From a virus (Duplodnaviria; Caudoviricetes), in the IMG/VR virus record IMGVR_UViG_3300010429_000409, positions 30,540 to 94,539 of that record: 64,000 nucleotides of DNA; one strand, 5' to 3'. Shown here one piece after another: positions 7,469 through 35,504 of this stretch. A model generated the notes under the pieces. It was not told the origin of the DNA and did no database searches. It worked only from the letters and a program-made list of their open reading frames with translations. Position 1 is the first letter of the stretch, and each line of letters opens with the position of its first letter. The position numbers and the translations under genes were made by a program.

Positions 7469-7690
7469 TCAGATCACACCTTTCCAAAAATCTTTTTCCA
7501 TTTTCTCTTTGAATCCATGCTCTCCACCCGGAGGCCCCATGGAGGCGCCGCATTCAGGGCACTTGAGTTGATTGCAAGGGTTGCCACGTGGATGTTCAAC
7601 AATTTGTCCACACTTTGGGCACTCGCATGTCGCTTTTCCGCCTTGCTGCTCAGCCCCTCCGCCTTGGCCTTGTTCCTTCTTGATTTCCAC
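7469..7690 (-). CDS. 73-aa Cys-rich (Zn-ribbon-like) protein with scaffold-type C-terminal tag
   Basis: GTG at 7690 with GAGGAG RBS just after the stop of the Pro-rich gene. MEIKKEQGQ...CECPKCGQIVEHPRGNPCNQLKCPECGASM...KMEKDFWKGVI*. Confidence 0.7.
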   Translation of the reverse strand: MEIKKEQGQGGGAEQQGGKATCECPKCGQIVEHPRGNPCNQLKCPECGASMGPPGGEHGFKEKMEKDFWKGVI

Positions 7691-7701
7691 TTTATCACTC
7701 C

Positions 7702-8049
7702 TCAATCCAATGGGCACGGAATCATGATTGGAAGAGTCGGCAATGCCGGAATCACAGGCAACGCCGGAGGCATTGGGATGGGCAAGGCCAACGGTGGCAA
7801 GGGTGGCAATGGCATCCCTGGAAGCATCATGGGGATGGGCGGCAACGCCGGAATCGCTGGCAGCACCGGGATGGCCGGTGGCATCGGGATGGGAAGTGCC
7901 AAGGGTGGCAACGGTGGCAATGGCATCCCTGGGAATGGAGGGATGGGTGGGACTGGCAGCACGGGCAGCACCGGCAGCACAGGAATGGCAGGAGGCACCG
8001 GAATAGGCAGCGCAAGCGGAGGCAACGGTGGTGTCAGGCACTTGCTCAT
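7702..8049 (-). CDS. Proline-rich repeat protein (115 aa)
   Basis: ATG overlaps the spike gene stop. PLPPLALPIP(V/M)PPA repeated three times. Ends CPLD. Confidence 0.6.
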   Translation of the reverse strand: MSKCLTPPLPPLALPIPVPPAIPVLPVLPVLPVPPIPPFPGMPLPPLPPLALPIPMPPAIPVLPAIPALPPIPMMLPGMPLPPLPPLALPIPMPPALPVIPALPTLPIMIPCPLD

Positions 8050-8921
8050 TCCAAAAACACCTTCTGGCTCAGGATCTGTGCTGTTGGGATTGGAGTGCCT
8101 GCGGTCGGAGGTCCGCTTGGCCCGGTTCCGGTCGGATGAATGTGGCCGTCATGCAGCATCACCATCTTGTTCCCAAGCACAGCCGGTTCCACCTCAGAGG
8201 CCAGGATCACTTTCCCGCCTTCCACCTTGGCTGTCTTGCAGCTGATGACCACATTGCTCTGCCCCAGCACCTGGATCAACCCATCCTTCATCTCGATGAT
8301 GCCGCCGCTCTTGTCAATCATCTTCAGCGAGGTATCATCAGCGCTGATGACGTTCCCGTTGGCCTCCATCAGCGTGAAGCACTTGTTTTTGGCATCCAAG
8401 GACAGCACTGTGCCCAACATGTTCGCCAACGACACAGAGCCCTCGTTGTCAAAGGCGATGAATGACCACTTGTCCTCACCCTCAGCGGTTTTCTTGTGCC
8501 AGCTCAAACGGACAGTTTCTTGCCCCTCGGTGTCATCAAACATCAGCATGTGCCCCATAGGGGTCATGAACCCGCGCCGCTTCCCGTAGTTGGTTTTGAG
8601 GTCATCAGGAATCGGCCGTGGCGCTGGTGTGGATTCATCTGTTCCACCCCACCAACGCTTCCCTCGCCAGTTGATGACCGGGTTGAACACTGCCGATTCC
8701 ATGAAGCTGACATCCCGGTCGGATGACGTCACAATCTCGATTTCCACAGCCTCATCGACATCTGGCACCAAGAAGAATCCCCACTCAAACACAGGCTCAA
8801 TCCAATGGCTGATTGGCTTCTTGTCAGTCCCAGTCCAATCGGGGCAGACCACCTTGATGCGGCCACGTTGCTCTGGGTCCTGGTTGTCCACAACCCTGGC
8901 GTTGTACCTCTGCGTGCCCAT
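8046..8921 (-). CDS. Baseplate central spike (P2 gpV / T4 gp5 OB-fold type)
   Basis: ARVVDNQDPEQRGRIKV OB-fold start, beta-helix region, and HDGHIHPTGTGPSGPP metal-binding tip. ATG 8921 overlaps the upstream TGA. Confidence 0.88.
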   Translation of the reverse strand: MGTQRYNARVVDNQDPEQRGRIKVVCPDWTGTDKKPISHWIEPVFEWGFFLVPDVDEAVEIEIVTSSDRDVSFMESAVFNPVINWRGKRWWGGTDESTPAPRPIPDDLKTNYGKRRGFMTPMGHMLMFDDTEGQETVRLSWHKKTAEGEDKWSFIAFDNEGSVSLANMLGTVLSLDAKNKCFTLMEANGNVISADDTSLKMIDKSGGIIEMKDGLIQVLGQSNVVISCKTAKVEGGKVILASEVEPAVLGNKMVMLHDGHIHPTGTGPSGPPTAGTPIPTAQILSQKVFLE

Positions 8922-20558: not shown

Positions 20559-20945
20559 CTACAGGATGCCGCCCCAAAAACCCTTCTTCACCTCGGCCTT
20601 GACCTTGGGAACATACACCGTCCTACGCTCCACCTCGGTGGGGTCGCCCTTGAAGGTGTAGGCTCCGGTGCCCGTGTCGCGCTTGAACTGCAACTCGTAC
20701 ACCACAGGCTCCGGATAGGGCGAGTCATCATCCATGGGGCCACGGACGTTCCGCATCACCTCCACCATGATCTTGTCGGTGAACACCTGGGCCGGATAGG
20801 CCATGTCCTTGTCCTTGCTGAACAGCCCTTTCTCAGCCAGGTGGCTGAGGCAAGGCTCTTTCAGGCTCTTGACGAACCCATCCAGGTCCTCACCTTCCAT
20901 GAACGGCAGCGCCGCCTTCTCAACCATCACTTGGGTCTGTGCCAT
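20559..20945 (-). CDS. Hypothetical head-associated protein with scaffold-type C-terminal tag
   Basis: ATG 20945 with AGGAGG RBS; ends KAEVKKGFWGGIL*. Confidence 0.65.
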   Translation of the reverse strand: MAQTQVMVEKAALPFMEGEDLDGFVKSLKEPCLSHLAEKGLFSKDKDMAYPAQVFTDKIMVEVMRNVRGPMDDDSPYPEPVVYELQFKRDTGTGAYTFKGDPTEVERRTVYVPKVKAEVKKGFWGGIL

Positions 20946-20968
20946 GACTTCCTCCTGTGAACAAGATT

Positions 20969-21271
20969 TTAGGGCCATCTGCCTTCCGGGTCGAATGGAC
21001 TGCCCTTCACGTCATCCAGCCCGATGATTCCTGCCTTGTCACGATAGAACGCCTGGATGAAGTCCCCCACCTTCGGGGCCACAAACATCTCAATGGCGTT
21101 GGGGGCAACTTCCGCCCAACCCAACCGTTCATCTGCCGCATCTTGGACCTGGCCATTGATCATCACCTTGACGCTTCCGGGCTCGTACTGCGTTGGCGTT
21201 TGGAACGTCCGGTTGTGCCCATCGACACTCCCAGCAAGCTGAACCAGTCTGCTTTCCTTGTACAGACCCAT
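20969..21271 (-). CDS. Small beta-sandwich virion protein
   Basis: GSVDGHNRTFQTPTQYEPGSVKVMINGQVQ, a pattern typical of phage surface domains. Confidence 0.5.
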   Translation of the reverse strand: MGLYKESRLVQLAGSVDGHNRTFQTPTQYEPGSVKVMINGQVQDAADERLGWAEVAPNAIEMFVAPKVGDFIQAFYRDKAGIIGLDDVKGSPFDPEGRWP

Positions 21272-27900: not shown

Positions 27901-29097
27901 TCAGCTGATGCTGGTGCCGATGTTCTTGCCCTTCACCACCGCATCCAGCTCCTCGAAGTTGAAGTCCAGCTTCACGGTGATGGCGTACTGGTTGACACCC
28001 TTGAAGATGTCCCGATCCTTCTCGATGCGGATGTCACGCCCGATGCCCACGATGTAGTTCTGCTGGTGGGTGAGCAGGATCTGCGGGTTGGAGGTGTAGG
28101 TCACCTTCACGGTGGCCCCATCCCCGATGGTCGAGCCGCTGCGCCGCTTGATCTTGCCGGTGGCGGCGGTCAGCTCATAGTCCGTGGATGCGCTGTAGGC
28201 GTCCAGCGGGGTGCCACTCAGGGTGGCCGGGGTGACCACCACGTTGCTCACCGGAGCGTACAGCAGCTGGGTGTCGGTGGTGCCGTTCAGCACCACGTGC
28301 TCGGTGACCGGCGGCATCAGGTCCAGCAGGGGCAACTCCACCGGGGTGATGCCGAAGGGCTTGTGCATGGAACCACCAGCCGCCTCATCGCCCAGCACGG
28401 TGGTCCGGCTGGCCAGCTTCTCCAGATACAGCTGGTACACATCGCTGGAGAGATAGAACCGGAGATCACCCTTGTTGCGCCGGAACTTGGTGGGCAGCGC
28501 CCGCAGCATGGCGCTGAAGGTGCTCAGGCTGATGTTGGCCGCCAGCTGGTCCACCACGTGCGCGCCGTCCGCCAGCTTCATCCAGCCATTGGTCAGGGCC
28601 AGGTAGGTGTCCTTGACGTACTTGGTGGCGCTGCCGCCGTCCACCAGGTCGCCCTCCAGGATGGCCGGGCCGAGGGTGTTGCCGTTGAGGCCCAGCTCCT
28701 CCATGTCGTTGGCCAGCTGCGTGGCCATCATCTTGATGATGTGGTCCTCCACGCTGGCACCCTCGATGTTCACGTCCATGAAGGTGTCGCTGATCTCGAA
28801 CGGCACCATGACCTCCCTGGGCTGCAGGGTGATCTTGCTGGTGCTGATGCCCCTGCGCACGGAGGGGGCAGACGCCTCCGCCTTGGGCACCGCCACGCGC
28901 CGCCCGATGCCGATCTTGTCGATCTCCAGCTGCTCGTTGCGGAAGCGCACGATGCGGGCGTTGTTCTTCAGCACGGACTCGTCCACCACGTAGTCGATGA
29001 ACTTGTCGGACTGGGCCGGGTTCAGCTTGCCTGCGGCCGCCAGCGCGTCCGTGGCGATGATGGCCTTCTGGATCAGTTCCTGATTGGGAATGCTCAT
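27901..29097 (-). CDS. Major capsid protein (HK97 fold, PBSX XkdG-like) with internal beta-domain insertion
   Basis: GKLNPAQSDKFID...EIDKIGIGRR...NIEG...LANDMEELGLNGN...LLTHQQNYIVGIGRDIRIE. ATG 29097 with AGGAGGAA RBS. Confidence 0.93.
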   Translation of the reverse strand: MSIPNQELIQKAIIATDALAAAGKLNPAQSDKFIDYVVDESVLKNNARIVRFRNEQLEIDKIGIGRRVAVPKAEASAPSVRRGISTSKITLQPREVMVPFEISDTFMDVNIEGASVEDHIIKMMATQLANDMEELGLNGNTLGPAILEGDLVDGGSATKYVKDTYLALTNGWMKLADGAHVVDQLAANISLSTFSAMLRALPTKFRRNKGDLRFYLSSDVYQLYLEKLASRTTVLGDEAAGGSMHKPFGITPVELPLLDLMPPVTEHVVLNGTTDTQLLYAPVSNVVVTPATLSGTPLDAYSASTDYELTAATGKIKRRSGSTIGDGATVKVTYTSNPQILLTHQQNYIVGIGRDIRIEKDRDIFKGVNQYAITVKLDFNFEELDAVVKGKNIGTSIS

Positions 29098-29156
29098 CTG
29101 TTCCTCCTGTGGGTTTCTTTCGTCCCTGGGTTCTTTGGTCACGCCATCTGACACAG

Positions 29157-30023
29157 CTAGATCACGCCGTGCCAAAAACTCTTCTGCACGTTCTTGTTCT
29201 TGTCGTCGGTGCCGCCACTCCCCTCGATGGACTGGGAAGGCACACGCGCCTTCTCAATCACCTCCAACCGCCCCATCAGCGCGTCCAGATTCTTCTGGAC
29301 AGCGGTGATCTGCTGCCGCAGCTCATCGGCCGAGGCATCGACCTTCGGAGCCTCCACCTTGGGCTCCGCCTCGGGCGCGGGCTTGGTCACATCCTCGGCC
29401 TTGGTCACGGACACAGGGGCAGGCCCGGCCGGAGGCTGGATGCCACTGGACAGGTCGGGCTTGAAGGCGCCGCCCATCTTGTCGTGAACTTCCTTCAGCA
29501 CGTTGGTATCCACCTCGCCCAGCAGGTCCGCCAGGCTCAGAATCACATCCTTGAGCGCCTGGGTCCGGCTGCCGGTGAACACCTTGGCCTTGCGCAACTC
29601 CGCAAGAGTGCCGTTCACCTTGACATCGCCCTCCGGGGTGACGCTCATGGTGTAGGCATCCGTCTTGGCAACGGGCTCCGCCTCGGGCTTGGGAGCCTCG
29701 GGCGCGGGCTCCGGCTTGGCGTCGGGCACAGGCGCCTCGGGCTTGGGAGCCTCGGGCGCGGGCTCCGGCTTGGCCTCCACCTCGGGCTTGGTCACATCAC
29801 CTTCCGGCTTGCCAGCCTCGGGCTCCGCCTTCTTCACAGCCTCTGGCGCCGTGGCCGCGCTCTTCACTTCCTTGGGAGCTGCCATGGGTTCCTCCTCCAT
29901 TCGTTTGACGATCAAAAACTTGCGTTGAATTGCCGGTTTGTCAACCAGCGACACCTCATTGACCTCCAGGTCAACGATGCGTCTCACACCCTTCATTTCC
30001 TCTTCACTCTTTTTTTGGCTCAT
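29157..30023 (-). CDS. Capsid scaffolding protein
   Basis: Between protease and capsid; disordered PEAPK linker, coiled coil, C-terminal VQKSFWHGVI*. Confidence 0.8.
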   Translation of the reverse strand: MSQKKSEEEMKGVRRIVDLEVNEVSLVDKPAIQRKFLIVKRMEEEPMAAPKEVKSAATAPEAVKKAEPEAGKPEGDVTKPEVEAKPEPAPEAPKPEAPVPDAKPEPAPEAPKPEAEPVAKTDAYTMSVTPEGDVKVNGTLAELRKAKVFTGSRTQALKDVILSLADLLGEVDTNVLKEVHDKMGGAFKPDLSSGIQPPAGPAPVSVTKAEDVTKPAPEAEPKVEAPKVDASADELRQQITAVQKNLDALMGRLEVIEKARVPSQSIEGSGGTDDKNKNVQKSFWHGVI

Positions 30024-30034
30024 AGCAACTCCAG

Positions 30035-30067
30035 ATTTTAGTCCAATGGGGTGGCCAAGGGAAATTT
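30035..30067 (-). promoter_or_regulatory. Candidate late promoter upstream of scaffold/capsid
   Basis: AAATTT-N21-TAAAAT containing TGGCCACC; same layout at 37616-37648. Confidence 0.35.
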
Positions 30068-30644
30068 ACACCAATGTGGCCATCCCACCGATGCTGTATC
30101 CGGTGATCTCCCCTGCCTTGATTTTCTTCCACACACTCTCATCCAGCACTTTGACCACCATGAGCCACGAACCCTTCTTGACCGGCTGGTCCTGCACGGT
30201 CATGTCAACCAGAGAAATGTAGCTTTGCGCCAGTTCAACTCCGATGTTCCCAAACAAGCGGTGCATCAAGCCCAGCTTGGTTTCACGATTATAGCTGGCC
30301 AGGAAGGCATGGGCAGCTTCCTCAATCACATCTGAGTTGATGGTGTCGTTTTGAGCATCCACTTCATCTGGTTCTAAAACAACACCATAAACAAGCCGTT
30401 TTTCTGAATCAATCTTGGCAATAGCTACGTTGCATTTCACCTCCGCGTTGTAGCTCTTGGGTTGCACTTCGCCCTGGGAATCGTGAACGCTGTCCATGTT
30501 GACACCCTCTTGTTTCTTTGGCGCAGCACCCGCTGGTGCTTCGCTTTCAGACTTGGTCACCACAACACGCACACGGTGCAACTGCGTCGCACGCTCCGTT
30601 TTGGAAATTGTGCGTCTTGGCAACCGTTCTCTTTTCATCACCAT
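30066..30644 (-). CDS. Prohead serine protease, XkdF-like
   Basis: EKRLVYGVVLEPDEVDAQND...AAHAFL...LMH...KGSWL...WKKIKAGEITGYSIGG. Start uncertain. Confidence 0.9.
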   Translation of the reverse strand: MVMKRERLPRRTISKTERATQLHRVRVVVTKSESEAPAGAAPKKQEGVNMDSVHDSQGEVQPKSYNAEVKCNVAIAKIDSEKRLVYGVVLEPDEVDAQNDTINSDVIEEAAHAFLASYNRETKLGLMHRLFGNIGVELAQSYISLVDMTVQDQPVKKGSWLMVVKVLDESVWKKIKAGEITGYSIGGMATLV

Positions 30645-30655
30645 GGCGACACCCT

Positions 30656-31693
30656 TCAAACCATGTCCACAGTACACCGACAATTGAGGTGGAATGGAGG
30701 CATGCTGAACCCCTCTGCCATCAGCGCATCGGAATCACTTGCCCCTGAATCCCCAGCCTTTGGCGAAATGTCCAACAGCTTTTCCGGATTCAACCACGGG
30801 TGGATGTCCGCCACGTCATCAGGCGTCTTGGCATCAACCTCTTCCTCCACAGCCTGAATCCCTTTTGAAACAGAGAATGTCTTTCCATCCATGTGCGAAC
30901 ACACCTCGCACGTCCGTTCATCAATCGGATTCACGATGACATACTGTTGGATGTTCAATTCTTCAAAGCTACGCAGTTGCCCCTGGACTCTGCTCACAGT
31001 CACCGCATTGTTCACAACGCCTTCCAGGTAGGATGACGCTGTGCCAACATACCCTTCAGGGCTCTCAACACGCTCCATGACCCGTTCCAGCTTTTCGCGC
31101 AGCTTGTCTCTGCCCATCTCGCCAGCGCCTCCGGCCTCAAGAACTTCTTTGGATGCGCCCCTGATGGCCCGCTGCACCCGGGTCCCATACAGATCGCCAA
31201 TCCAAAAAGTCTCGTGCCTTCTCAGCGCCTCAATGGCCTTCTTGTCTTTCACGCCCAAAACGGGTTTGGCTGTGGCTTTGGCCTTCTGCACATCTTCTTT
31301 TTCAGCAGCTGCTTCCTCCTGGTTGTACTGCAGACTGCGCTTCATCTTCCCCGAGGCTTTCTTGAACCCAGCATCCCGGGCCAGCTTGTAGGTTTGCTCA
31401 ACCCCTTCCAAATAGGTGTCCAGCACTTCATCTGACCAATCGCCAAAGATGCCATCAACAACTTCCATGATGTCGCCCAGGCTGGCATCCTTTTCAAACA
31501 TCGGGAGGGTCTTATCAACAGCTTTTTTGACCCTGGCCATCCATGTGCCACGCATCAGCTTCCGCAGCCTGTTCTCAATCGCAGCAATCCTTGTGATCTC
31601 ATCACTGCGCGCTGCCTTCAAGAGCAAGTCCTCAACACGCTCCAGGCGCTTGTAGATGGCAACCTTGCTGCCGCTGTGGCCCTGGCAGGTCAT
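30656..31693 (-). CDS. Head morphogenesis protein (SPP1 gp7 / Mu gpF-like)
   Basis: DERTCEVCSHMDGK...PPFHLNCRC. Confidence 0.88.
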   Translation of the reverse strand: MTCQGHSGSKVAIYKRLERVEDLLLKAARSDEITRIAAIENRLRKLMRGTWMARVKKAVDKTLPMFEKDASLGDIMEVVDGIFGDWSDEVLDTYLEGVEQTYKLARDAGFKKASGKMKRSLQYNQEEAAAEKEDVQKAKATAKPVLGVKDKKAIEALRRHETFWIGDLYGTRVQRAIRGASKEVLEAGGAGEMGRDKLREKLERVMERVESPEGYVGTASSYLEGVVNNAVTVSRVQGQLRSFEELNIQQYVIVNPIDERTCEVCSHMDGKTFSVSKGIQAVEEEVDAKTPDDVADIHPWLNPEKLLDISPKAGDSGASDSDALMAEGFSMPPFHLNCRCTVDMV

Positions 31694-33396
31694 TTCTTCC
31701 CGCCCTCCGCCTCACCACCCGCTCCGCCTTCCAGCTCATTGATGAGGCCCAGACGCAAATCAATCAATCGCTGGACAGCATCAAATGGGTTGGTGATGGC
31801 ATGCTTCATGGCGGTCACCTGTTGTCCAACCTCATTCGGCATGGCCATGTTCTTCACAGCCTCTGCCATGGTCATGGAGAATGGGATGTCCAACGGCACA
31901 GAGGCATCCATGGATGGGAGGTCCTGCCCCAAAACAGCTTCCAGGATCATCCTGGCTGTGCGCGGAGTCATGCCACCAGACCGCTCCGCACCTGACATGA
32001 TGCTGATGAGGCTTGTGTTGTCCGTGACGTTGGGCGAATTGGACTTGTATTTGTGGTACACGATGCCCATTTCAGGGAACAAGCGCCGATTCATCCAGGC
32101 ATCAAACTCATCCCGCTCCGGAGCAAACACCTGCTCATCTGCTAGCACCCGGCTGGACTCAGCTGTTGCCCGGGTGTAGTCATCGCTCCGACCCACAAAG
32201 ATTGGAGGCAGACGGAATGCCCGCCTGATCTTGTCTTGGTTGTTCTGCGAATACTGTTGGAACAACGCATCCGTGTGCTGAAGCGCCACCAGCGGTTTGA
32301 CATCGATCTTGACCTGGCCACCATCCTCGCCTTCATAGGATGATTCGCCCTCCAAGATCAAAAACTTGCTGTAATTGTCAGAGCCTTGGATCTGGCTTTC
32401 AACAAACTCCTTGATGCGGTCGATTGAAGCTTGGGTCAGCATCCCATTCGACACGGCAATCATCATCGACGGGATGTTGTTGTTCTTGAACGTGGTGAAG
32501 TTGATTTCCTCGGATGCCCGATCACCAAAGATGGACAGCAGATTCCCGATGTACCTGGGGACACCATATGGCGTCCTGGGAGCGTAGTTGCGAAAGTGCA
32601 CCAGCTCAGTCGCACGCTTGGTCACATCCAAAGGCGCTTGCGCCAATTCGCCTGTGGTGCAATCATACACCCTTGGGTCACCAAATTCCTTGTACCACCG
32701 CTTGGCACTGGAACCCACCCACCCAAGGCTTCTCAGCTGCGTCTGCTTGGATTGGACATAGCGCCGAAATCTCTTCCACGTTTTGACCTTGACCACCTTG
32801 ATGGAACCATCCTGCTGCAGCTCCAGCAAGGGCACCTCAACCTCAAAAGGCTGTTCCTCCACAGGTGTCAGGCGCACTTGATAGGATGGGACGTGATTCA
32901 ACCCTTGGATTTTGCCATCCAACCCTCGGACAACTTCCATGCACCCATTCCCATTCAACTCCAAATCCTTCCTGATCTTCCTCCGGGTCATGGTGAAGCT
33001 GTCTTCAATTGATGCATATGCAAAAAAGTTTTCCAGCCGGATGCGCTCTTGATTCACTTCATTCTTCAGCCCATCCGGAGGATTCTTGTCCATGTCAACA
33101 CGCGGGATGAACCTGTGTCCAAACCCGTCAATGTTGATTTCCATGGCCTCGATGCACTGATTCAACTCGGTGCTGTGCTCATTCAGCATCGACAACACAA
33201 GCAGATCAAACGGTGGCTCAACAATTTCACCCTTGGCCACCATCGCACCCAAATCATCTGTGGTGGAACCAGCCGGTTTGACCTCCCCGCCCTGCGCATC
33301 CTGTTTGGTGATTGGAAGCACCAACACACGGACACGGCCCATAGCCTTCTGGTTCCCGGTTGCCGCCTTCTTGTTTGCTTCGCCCAAGCCTTCCAT
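31690..33396 (-). CDS. Portal protein (PBSX-family-like)
   Basis: VEPPFD..L, DLELNGNG.MEV.R, ELVHF......YGVPRYI, FKNNNIP, AFRLPPIFVGRSDDYTRATA. Confidence 0.92.
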   Translation of the reverse strand: MEGLGEANKKAATGNQKAMGRVRVLVLPITKQDAQGGEVKPAGSTTDDLGAMVAKGEIVEPPFDLLVLSMLNEHSTELNQCIEAMEINIDGFGHRFIPRVDMDKNPPDGLKNEVNQERIRLENFFAYASIEDSFTMTRRKIRKDLELNGNGCMEVVRGLDGKIQGLNHVPSYQVRLTPVEEQPFEVEVPLLELQQDGSIKVVKVKTWKRFRRYVQSKQTQLRSLGWVGSSAKRWYKEFGDPRVYDCTTGELAQAPLDVTKRATELVHFRNYAPRTPYGVPRYIGNLLSIFGDRASEEINFTTFKNNNIPSMMIAVSNGMLTQASIDRIKEFVESQIQGSDNYSKFLILEGESSYEGEDGGQVKIDVKPLVALQHTDALFQQYSQNNQDKIRRAFRLPPIFVGRSDDYTRATAESSRVLADEQVFAPERDEFDAWMNRRLFPEMGIVYHKYKSNSPNVTDNTSLISIMSGAERSGGMTPRTARMILEAVLGQDLPSMDASVPLDIPFSMTMAEAVKNMAMPNEVGQQVTAMKHAITNPFDAVQRLIDLRLGLINELEGGAGGEAEGGKK

Positions 33397-33406
33397 GTGC
33401 CACCTC

Positions 33407-34873
33407 TCAGATCAATCCTGGCTCTTTTTCTCTGCGGCGCCGCTTCCCCTTGGATCTGGAAGCCCGGATGGCGTTGTCCAACGCATCAAACAGGTCCTTG
33501 AATCGACCATTCGGGAACCCAACCAATTGGTCAATCAGCCCTTCATTCCCCGGCAGGAAGAACATGCGCTTGTCCTCGAACAAAGATGTCAATTTCCAAG
33601 CCCGGGTGATTTTGTCCTCTTGGGTGTTGATTGGAAGCACCCTGATGTCCTTGTTCCGGTCCTTCAACTCCTGGGCCAATGCCAACTGATATGCATTCGT
33701 CTCAACACCCATGAAGATGGGGTCATGACGCTTGAACCAATCTTCAAGAAAGTGCACCTGTTGTTTGAATCGGAGGTGGCCGGCAAACGATTCCAAGATG
33801 TAATAATTGAGCTGTTGTGTGACTGCCAGGGCCACAGCGGCAAACTGGTCAGCAGAATCCTTCTGTGAGATTGCCAGGTCAACGCCCACGTACAATTTCA
33901 CTCCGGACGGAACATCGGCAGCAACAGCAGGTTGGCAGTCATCGTATTGGAACACCTCGCCCTTCATGGCCTCTGTGTCGCATTGATACTGGGCATTGAA
34001 AATGATGGTCCCTGACTTCTTGCGTTTTTCAATGAACCACTCAGGCGCATATTTCTCAGGCCATGGACTTCGCCCTTGGTCATCCAGCGCCCTGACAATG
34101 TTGTGGTCGTTGGCCAATTCATTTTTGATCAGATGGCCATACAGGTCCTCATAGTGATAGCGCGTCCCAAGTCGGTGGTGCTCCCCTCTGAATTCAACTT
34201 CAGGGTCCGGAGGCTCCAAGCATGGGTCCAGCGTTTGATAATACCACGTCCGGACACGGTCACGCATGTGCTTGGTCCGGCTGTTCTCTTCATCCACCAA
34301 GTCATCTGAGATGATGACATCATAGTGGCGAGAAACAATTGTGGTCTCAACACCCACGCATGTGATGCTTGCTTCCTTGGTGTGCTTCCTCCGGGGCAGT
34401 ATCTCGATTTCACGGTTGTCCCATTTGGTCACTTTCCGTGGATCGTAGTATTCCCCAAAGATTTCAATCAGCTTGTAGTTGCTTTCAAAATGTCCTTTGA
34501 TTTCCTTCAGGAATCCTTCTGCGTTGGCTGAGGTCTTGCTGGCGATCAAGATGCGCAAGTCAGGATTCTTCAAGAGCATGTGGATGGACTTTGCAACGGT
34601 GCACAGAGTGCTTTTCCCCGCGCCTCGGAACACCAACTGCAGGTTGTCACGATGCTCGAATTGATACTTGAGCAAGGCAAGATGGAATGGCCTCACCTGG
34701 TATCCCAAAACGTATTGGGCCAGCAGGTCCACCCGGTTGTTTTCGATGATTTGGCGGCGCAACCATTCTGCCTTCATCTTGTGATAGTGCGCCAAATACT
34801 CTATGAGTTCAGACCGCTCTGCTTCAGCGAGCATGTTTGGATTGGCTGAGATGGTCTGAACTTTGGGCGCCAT
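33407..34873 (-). CDS. terL: Terminase large subunit
   Basis: Walker A RGAGKST, Walker B IISDDL, GTRYH..DLYG, nuclease GVDLA...DLFDAL. ATG 34873 overlaps the upstream TGA. Confidence 0.93.
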   Translation of the reverse strand: MAPKVQTISANPNMLAEAERSELIEYLAHYHKMKAEWLRRQIIENNRVDLLAQYVLGYQVRPFHLALLKYQFEHRDNLQLVFRGAGKSTLCTVAKSIHMLLKNPDLRILIASKTSANAEGFLKEIKGHFESNYKLIEIFGEYYDPRKVTKWDNREIEILPRRKHTKEASITCVGVETTIVSRHYDVIISDDLVDEENSRTKHMRDRVRTWYYQTLDPCLEPPDPEVEFRGEHHRLGTRYHYEDLYGHLIKNELANDHNIVRALDDQGRSPWPEKYAPEWFIEKRKKSGTIIFNAQYQCDTEAMKGEVFQYDDCQPAVAADVPSGVKLYVGVDLAISQKDSADQFAAVALAVTQQLNYYILESFAGHLRFKQQVHFLEDWFKRHDPIFMGVETNAYQLALAQELKDRNKDIRVLPINTQEDKITRAWKLTSLFEDKRMFFLPGNEGLIDQLVGFPNGRFKDLFDALDNAIRASRSKGKRRRREKEPGLI

Positions 34874-35142
34874 CAGATCACACCTTCCCAAAATCCCTTC
34901 TTGACTTCGCCCGCCTCTTCAAGGTCTGCCTTGAGATCATGATCCTTGAGCCACTTTTTGGCCTCGGCCGGTGTCCACTTTTTCTTGTCAAAGCGCAACG
35001 ATTGCAGGCCGGTTGTGCCATCTTCCCTGTATCCAATGATGGCGTCAATGCCATCAGGGTATCCCTTTGGGTGGATGCGAACAAACCGCTCAAACTGTTC
35101 TGGGTCCAACTGCCGGGCGGCATGTTCGCTGGGATACGGCAT
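34873..35142 (-). CDS. 89-aa protein with scaffold-type C-terminal tag
   Basis: ATG 35142 with GAGG; MPYPSEHAARQLDP...LQSLRFDKKKWTPAEAKKWLKDH...EVKKGFWEGVI*. Confidence 0.7.
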   Translation of the reverse strand: MPYPSEHAARQLDPEQFERFVRIHPKGYPDGIDAIIGYREDGTTGLQSLRFDKKKWTPAEAKKWLKDHDLKADLEEAGEVKKGFWEGVI

Positions 35143-35150
35143 AACCAACC

Positions 35151-35504
35151 TCACGCACCAGCAACCAGGATCTTGGTCGAGCCTCCGCCTGTTCCAGCTG
35201 TGACAGCAACCAAGATGATGCAGCTGTCCACATCCAAGGCAAACTGGCTGGGCGTGTTCGCTCCAGCAGCGCCATACGTGGTGGCGCCTGTGGAAATGAA
35301 CTTGCCTGCCTCATCCGACCACGACAACACCTTGAGGGTCGGATTGGCACCTCCAGATGGCACGGCCTGGATCACCGCTCGCTTGTAGCCCTTCATGTTC
35401 ATGCCCTGCGCCTTTTCGGTGATGTCGGCCACATCATCGGCCACAACCACACGGTGCAGGTTGAACTCGGGCGCTTCAGCCGGGCTGCGTTTGGTATCTG
35501 CCAT
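35151..35504 (-). CDS. Small beta-rich hypothetical (possibly virion) protein
   Basis: RBS GGAGGAA; 117 aa. Confidence 0.55.
   Translation of the reverse strand: MADTKRSPAEAPEFNLHRVVVADDVADITEKAQGMNMKGYKRAVIQAVPSGGANPTLKVLSWSDEAGKFISTGATTYGAAGANTPSQFALDVDSCIILVAVTAGTGGGSTKILVAGA

Follow-up and report, generated by a model that had tools for sequence, protein, structure and literature searches.

The head genes of this virus probably encode a maturation protease made of two pieces, a core specified by its own gene and a hairpin carried by the scaffold protein, which would bind each other in trans and thereby tether the protease to the scaffold. Sequence comparisons and structure models, taken together, make it most likely that the N-terminus of the scaffold not only tethers but also completes the protease. 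It is only partly understood what brings the correct number of such proteases into procapsids and keeps them harmless until assembly. If the two-piece arrangement is true, a protease fold that is finished by the scaffold would explain recruitment without an extra targeting signal, and would offer a simple on-switch. At least 71 distinct uncultivated phage loci, as well as cultured Pakpunavirus-type Pseudomonas phages, share the layout, which makes it directly testable. We found no published description of a split between core and scaffold; our literature searches on XkdF-like proteins, Peptidase_S78_2 and PF14550 yielded genome notes only.

The head gene locus

Throughout, the window is the 64,000-nucleotide stretch of viral DNA that we analyzed. 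It belongs to a complete virus record of 94,539 bp with direct terminal repeats and 56% G+C. The head module lies on the minus strand, in the order terminase, portal, Mu F-like protein, protease, scaffold and major capsid protein (Table 1). Translation of the minus strand from 29157 to 30683 bore out the anatomy described in the first-pass annotation, in which the protease ends just past Ser184 and is followed by one TAA, 14 sense codons and the in-frame scaffold ATG (30023).

Table 1. Head genes and smaller features of the protease-scaffold locus, in window coordinates.
Feature	Position	Strand	Evidence or remark
Large terminase	33407-34891	minus	
Portal	31690-33396	minus	
Mu F-like minor head protein	30656-31693	minus	PF04233, E 4e-7; directly upstream of protease gene
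Protease core, 192 aa (P0001)	30066-30644	minus	PF14550, E 1e-31; phrog_3017 positions 35-153 of 402
Protease stop TAA, next base A	30066-30068	minus	Ordinary gene end
Spacer, 42 nt (14 in-frame codons)	30024-30065	minus	GGAG at 30029-30032, 5 nt before scaffold ATG
Long scaffold form, 288 aa	29157-30023	minus	phrog_3017 positions 259-400 of 402, E 2e-11
Proposed docking hairpin, scaffold residues 14-41	29901-29984	minus	Strand HMM, 43 bits
Predicted internal start	29883-29898	minus	GGAGGAGG at 29891-29898, 5-nt spacer, ATG of Met47 at 29883-29885
Scaffold C-terminal F-W-H-G-V-I tag	29160-29177	minus	Presumed capsid-binding end
Major capsid protein	27901-29175	minus	phrog_1623, E 4.5e-77; directly downstream of scaffold

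The protease consists of an N-terminal extension of about 60 residues followed by an XkdF-type core, which scored 109.8 bits against PF14550 (Peptidase_S78_2), where the cut-off is 24, over profile positions 5-123 of 126. The same core was recovered by a search of the whole genome, which has exactly one core and one strand. Asp96, His128 (30261-30263) and Ser184 (30093-30095) did not vary in two alignments, one of 34 and one of 42 sequences, and the ORF ends 8 residues past Ser184 of the G-Y-S-I-G-G motif. The protease alone gave no match to the HK97-type family PF04586 (Peptidase_S78); the read-through product of the two genes reached 15.2 bits over profile positions 99-150 of 165, which is under the cut-off of 21. 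Neither the read-through protein nor the alignment profile found anything relevant in sequence searches of the PDB. A basic motif of the K-R-L-P-R-R type occupies protease residues 1-15 (30600-30644) and is common to the homologues P0002 and P0003, in which the next 40-100 residues are unrelated.

The long form of the scaffold begins with the proposed docking hairpin, continues through a linker rich in Pro, Glu, Ala and Lys and a helical body, and ends in an F-W-x-G tag. The part of phrog_3017 that it matches is the scaffold part of XkdF-type fusions, and the same type of C-terminal motif ends the XkdF-like protein of phage B83 and most of the downstream ORFs of the relatives. Within the genome, a C-terminus of the form F-W-x-G-[VI]-[IL] is found in four ORFs, namely the scaffold and those at 34873-35154, 20559-21011 and 7469-8068, all on the minus strand. 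Judging from this ending, the latter three may be small proteins targeted to the head, with the same presumed capsid-binding tag as the scaffold.

A probable protease element on the scaffold

Strong conservation at the scaffold N-terminus is confined to residues 14-41. Across 66 distinct sequences, Glu23, Ser25, Val27, Asp28, Ala31, Phe36 and Lys40 were each kept in 63 to 66. A strand HMM run on the whole genome matched the scaffold once, and the next best score was 3.7 bits. On the protease ORF itself it reached only 2.2 bits, compared with 43 on the scaffold ORF, so that no strand motif was found within the protease chain. The protease's own N-terminal extension, which bears a weak resemblance at residues 12-33, was considered as a source of the strand and rejected, being disordered in both structure models and without a match to the strand HMM.

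The same parts occur in other linkages. In the XkdF-like proteins of Bacillus phage B83 and Lactococcus phage 56701, strand, core and scaffold form one chain with the strand first. The N-terminal strand that the first-pass annotation ascribed to PBSX XkdF is thus borne out on the XkdF-like proteins of these two phages. In loci L010-L016, the strand is separated from the core by more than 300 inserted residues. The order core, linker, strand and scaffold, again in one chain, is seen in psiM100 ORF12 and in Halorubrum tailed virus gpB, and fusions of this kind also occur inside the window's own clade (L077, P0125, P0175 and P0206). Because the hairpin accompanies the core whatever the linkage, and is well conserved on an otherwise fast-evolving scaffold, it is best read, from these comparisons, as a part of the protease that is carried by the scaffold. 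The earlier proposal that a strand of the protease fold here resides on the scaffold is thus upheld by fusions in two orders, by adjacency in 71 loci, by the near-invariant residues of the hairpin, by a model pLDDT of 94 and by alignment to a strand of T4 gp21. Its conserved Glu was a narrower matter, holding within the clade (65 of 66) but not in the family at large: XkdF-like proteins have His at this position, and psiM100 has Thr.

Scaffold N-termini have functions in other phages, and the conserved segment could in principle serve the scaffold, in oligomerization or in binding to portal or capsid, with its likeness to a protease strand reflecting ancestry only. Against this, in nearly all of the 93 loci examined the motif is found together with a PF14550 core, either in the same chain or in the neighbouring gene; it is also N-terminal in proteases whose core is preceded by large inserts, and AlphaFold docks the hairpin on the core. 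We consider a role confined to the scaffold quite improbable.

Conservation of the split and the meaning of the stop codon

A scan of IMG/VR with the core alignment yielded 263 candidate relatives, and we examined 93 loci, made up of the best 80 of the 263 and 13 from a single-protein scan. A search with the scaffold protein as query recovered no relatives, as its body has diverged too far. The split was present in at least 71 distinct related loci, in which the core ORF ends 1-13 residues past the core and the strand motif, with 14-45 bits against the strand HMM, lies close to the N-terminus of the ORF that follows, usually preceded by 4-20 residues; in each of these loci it was the sole qualifying match. 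The few of the 93 loci that lacked an adjacent strand either had it 325-727 nt further downstream or were truncated contigs. Cultured phages show the same split, including Pakpunavirus JG004 (gp61/gp62), Pseudomonas phage vB_PseuGesM_254 and Rhodobacter phage RcKickapoo (gp34/gp35).

The length and frame of the spacer vary among these relatives. Counted from the core ORF, the frame of the downstream ORF is +2 in 31 of the 71 loci, +1 in 27 and 0 in 13, and the core ORF ends in TGA (29), TAA (24) or TAG (18). These counts lend no support to a significance of the shared frame or the single TAA; as the downstream ORFs of relatives lie in all three frames, the shared frame in the window is incidental. 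Conservation of frame, which had been suggested as a check, was likewise not seen, and the in-frame layout was in fact under-represented (13 loci, compared with about 24 expected; binomial P(≤13) = 0.004, for loci that are not phylogenetically independent). Accidental read-through fusions may have been selected against, or the rarity may simply result from the shared ancestry of the loci.

These data bear directly on the possibility that the TAA is read through or recoded, giving a low level of a protease-scaffold fusion and making the shared frame functional. The common frame and single stop of the window would allow this, and naturally fused forms are present in the clade. However, several of the 13 in-frame loci have two or three intervening stops, all three stop codons are used among relatives, and the scaffold has a GGAG and ATG of its own. 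TAA is the least leaky stop codon, and in the window it is followed by A. Although TAA is the rarest stop in the genome (6 of 92 long ORFs, with 70 TGA and 16 TAG), it closes other long genes, which argues against recoding. Read-through and a recent gene split, both raised earlier as alternatives, are very unlikely given that relatives use all frames and all stops.

Still less probable, to the point of being negligible, is that the stop arose through misassembly, or through a nonsense mutation that struck a once-fused gene very recently. Fused relatives do exist, but the identical 192-aa protease is on record from three sequences on two contigs, and the stop is therefore reproducible; homologues with 57-77% identity (P0002-P0005 and P0010) end at the same residue, and the split is the norm in the 71 loci and the cultured phages. 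The concern that the TAA might be an artifact can accordingly be set aside.

Structure models

For modeling with AlphaFold2 we used a 257-aa read-through construct with Gln in place of the TAA; natural fusions and relatives with the in-frame layout were part of the alignment. In this model, which joins two chains through an artificial linker and had a paired alignment of only about 12 rows, the scaffold strand was placed as a β-strand at model residues 221-234 with high confidence, and the artificial linker was poorly defined. The core modeled alone formed the same barrel, but the pLDDT of its Ser-bearing strand was 66, compared with 92 when the scaffold strand was present. The first 60 residues of the core were disordered in both models. 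The only stretch of low confidence inside the core was the loop with the invariant His128 (model residues 124-128, pLDDT below 50), and this loop, as modeled, could be mobile at the active site.

The top structural matches of the predicted model in the PDB were T4 gp21 (5JBL, Z 9.7) and the proteases of VZV (1VZV, Z 6.9) and HCMV (1NKK/8J3S, Z 5.6-5.7), and the next, unrelated chain had a Z of 3.9. Foldseek alone gave gp21 at an E value of only 5e-3, and VIA-align was needed. The read-through model superimposed on gp21 with an rmsd of 3.2 over 120 residues, matching model residues 77-236 to residues 24-172 of the chain. The core alone aligned only up to gp21 residue 148, with a Z of 9.4; because the score barely changes with the strand, the core by itself is already recognizable as this fold. 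His85 and Ser140 are catalytic in gp21 (bioRxiv 10.64898/2026.03.04.709575), and a His-Ser-Asp catalytic triad has been reported for it (PMC5694885). The gp21 chain goes on past Ser140 with a strand that contains Asp168 and a hairpin-like Pro-x-Ala motif. Taken from the ends of the alignment ranges rather than residue by residue, scaffold residues 23-29 lie opposite gp21 166-172, around Asp168. Either Glu23 or Ser25 might take the place of this Asp. In the present protease, the invariant Asp96 of the core could also act as the third catalytic residue instead of the hairpin Glu.

The recognizable fold of the isolated core leaves room for a different interpretation, in which the core is a complete enzyme alone and the hairpin, lying outside the fold and the active site, is a pseudo-substrate, an inhibitor or a plain edge-strand tether. 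It is in keeping with this that the core alone still matches gp21, that the invariant Lys40 beside the hairpin looks like a cleavage site, and that a terminal segment of T4 gp21 blocks the active site before activation (PMC9958956). On the other hand, gp21 and the herpesvirus proteases have an integral strand to which that of the hairpin aligns, the same element occurs in cis in all other family members, and the confidence with which the Ser strand is modeled depends on the hairpin. We regard a purely external role as unlikely, and favor completion of the protease by the scaffold hairpin.

Two predicted forms of the scaffold

Met47 of the scaffold is conserved in many relatives; its ATG in the window follows GGAGGAGG after a spacer of 5 nt. 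An in-frame ATG lies no more than 16 codons past the hairpin in 54 of 66 relatives. A Shine-Dalgarno match of at least 5 nt, at a distance of 4-9 nt, precedes 36 of these 54 ATGs, compared with 38 of the 350 other in-frame ATGs of the same ORFs (Fisher p 6e-18, for sequences that are not independent). The GGAGG is kept although the residues that it encodes differ (Glu-Glu, Arg-Arg, Gly-Gly or Lys-Glu), which points to selection on the RNA. The conserved Shine-Dalgarno sequence and ATG after the hairpin thus predict a 242-aa scaffold that lacks the hairpin (29157-29885), and this form is probably more abundant than the long one.

Proposed mechanism

In the mechanism that we propose, the core, with His128 and Ser184 and a gp21/assemblin fold, would lack the β-hairpin that adjoins its Ser-bearing strand, and residues 14-41 of the scaffold would supply it. 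The hairpin of the long scaffold form would bind the core in trans by strand complementation, completing the barrel by the Ser strand and placing the near-invariant face of Glu23 and Ser25 beside the active site. Such binding would tether the protease to the scaffold, whose C-terminal tag would carry the complex inside the procapsid. The short, hairpin-less scaffold that starts at Met47 would build the bulk of the scaffold, and only the long form would act as an adaptor for the protease. HK97-type proteases cut after Lys, and the invariant Lys40 just past the hairpin is a candidate cleavage point, at which the complex of core and hairpin could be freed from the scaffold body.

The wider family

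A HMMER scan identified 5,882 related proteins, and among the best 150 of these the core stands at the very C-terminus of proteins 128-2,049 residues long. Many relatives have other enzyme domains fused in front of the core, in place of the upstream Mu F-like gene; these include 2H phosphoesterase (LigT-like), ATP-dependent ligase, intein/LAGLIDADG and methylase domains (for example P0071, P0077, P0076 and P0068). Such large proteins may be RNA-repair or anti-defence enzymes that are delivered with the head.

Since the core is the C-terminal module of large enzymes, the pair of core and hairpin may also load cargo enzymes into heads. A tentative and rather doubtful extension of this idea is that the pair is a general dock for capsid loading and, at the same time, a split enzyme gated by assembly, with the cargo cut loose inside the head. 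Proteins fused before the XkdF core, of up to about 2,000 residues, would then be recruited to the long scaffold by strand complementation, and the protease would become competent only on docking because the scaffold supplies the Glu23/Ser25 face. Protein loading into phage heads might also make use of the 28-residue hairpin and the core as a natural pair of tags.

Genes for XkdF-type proteases are widely labelled 'DNA methyltransferase', 'capsid and scaffold protein' or 'portal protein' (for example JG004 gp61, L099:3405-3875, and 56701 gp35, L102:2878-3927), and these labels probably spread from the fused relatives. Identification of the split core corrects a common annotation, as many such cores carry the name 'DNA methyltransferase'.

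Comparison with known systems

The protease of the window resembles T4 gp21 (5JBL) and the herpesvirus assemblins (1VZV, 1NKK/8J3S) in its fold, in the order of His and Ser, and in having a strand after the Ser strand. Those enzymes, however, are single chains, and identity to them is only 12-14%, without a match at the level of sequence. HK97 gp4-type prohead proteases (PF04586) also have a Ser motif followed by a strand of the E-V-S type, and the read-through product matches PF04586 faintly, below the cut-off. In those proteases, however, the strand belongs to the protease chain itself, and a separate scaffold is absent.

Closer likenesses are found among the XkdF-type fusions (PF14550, PHROG 3017; vB_BtS_B83 gp09 and 56701 gp35), which share the core with its invariant His and Ser, the strand motif, a scaffold tail with an aromatic-Trp-x-Gly end, and a site between the portal/MuF and major capsid genes. 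Whereas these are single chains with an N-terminal strand, the window has a separate core gene and a strand that heads the scaffold gene. Methanothermobacter psiM100 ORF12 and Halorubrum tailed virus gpB have the same order of core, linker, strand and scaffold as the window; they are continuous ORFs, while in the window and its clade a gene boundary falls inside the linker.

New here are the conserved Shine-Dalgarno sequence and ATG directly past the hairpin, which predict a shorter scaffold that makes up the bulk. Nested scaffold starts are known from herpesvirus UL26/UL26.5 (PMC11565193) and from the archaeal virus HFTV1, where that of gp17/gp17.5 was shown by ribosome profiling (bioRxiv 10.64898/2026.09.13.751334). 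As in these systems and in lambda C/Nu3, the two forms predicted in the window would be a long one with a protease element and a shorter, abundant scaffold in the same frame. In lambda, the herpesviruses and HFTV1 the long form holds the whole protease, whereas here it carries one hairpin and the core is encoded by a separate gene.
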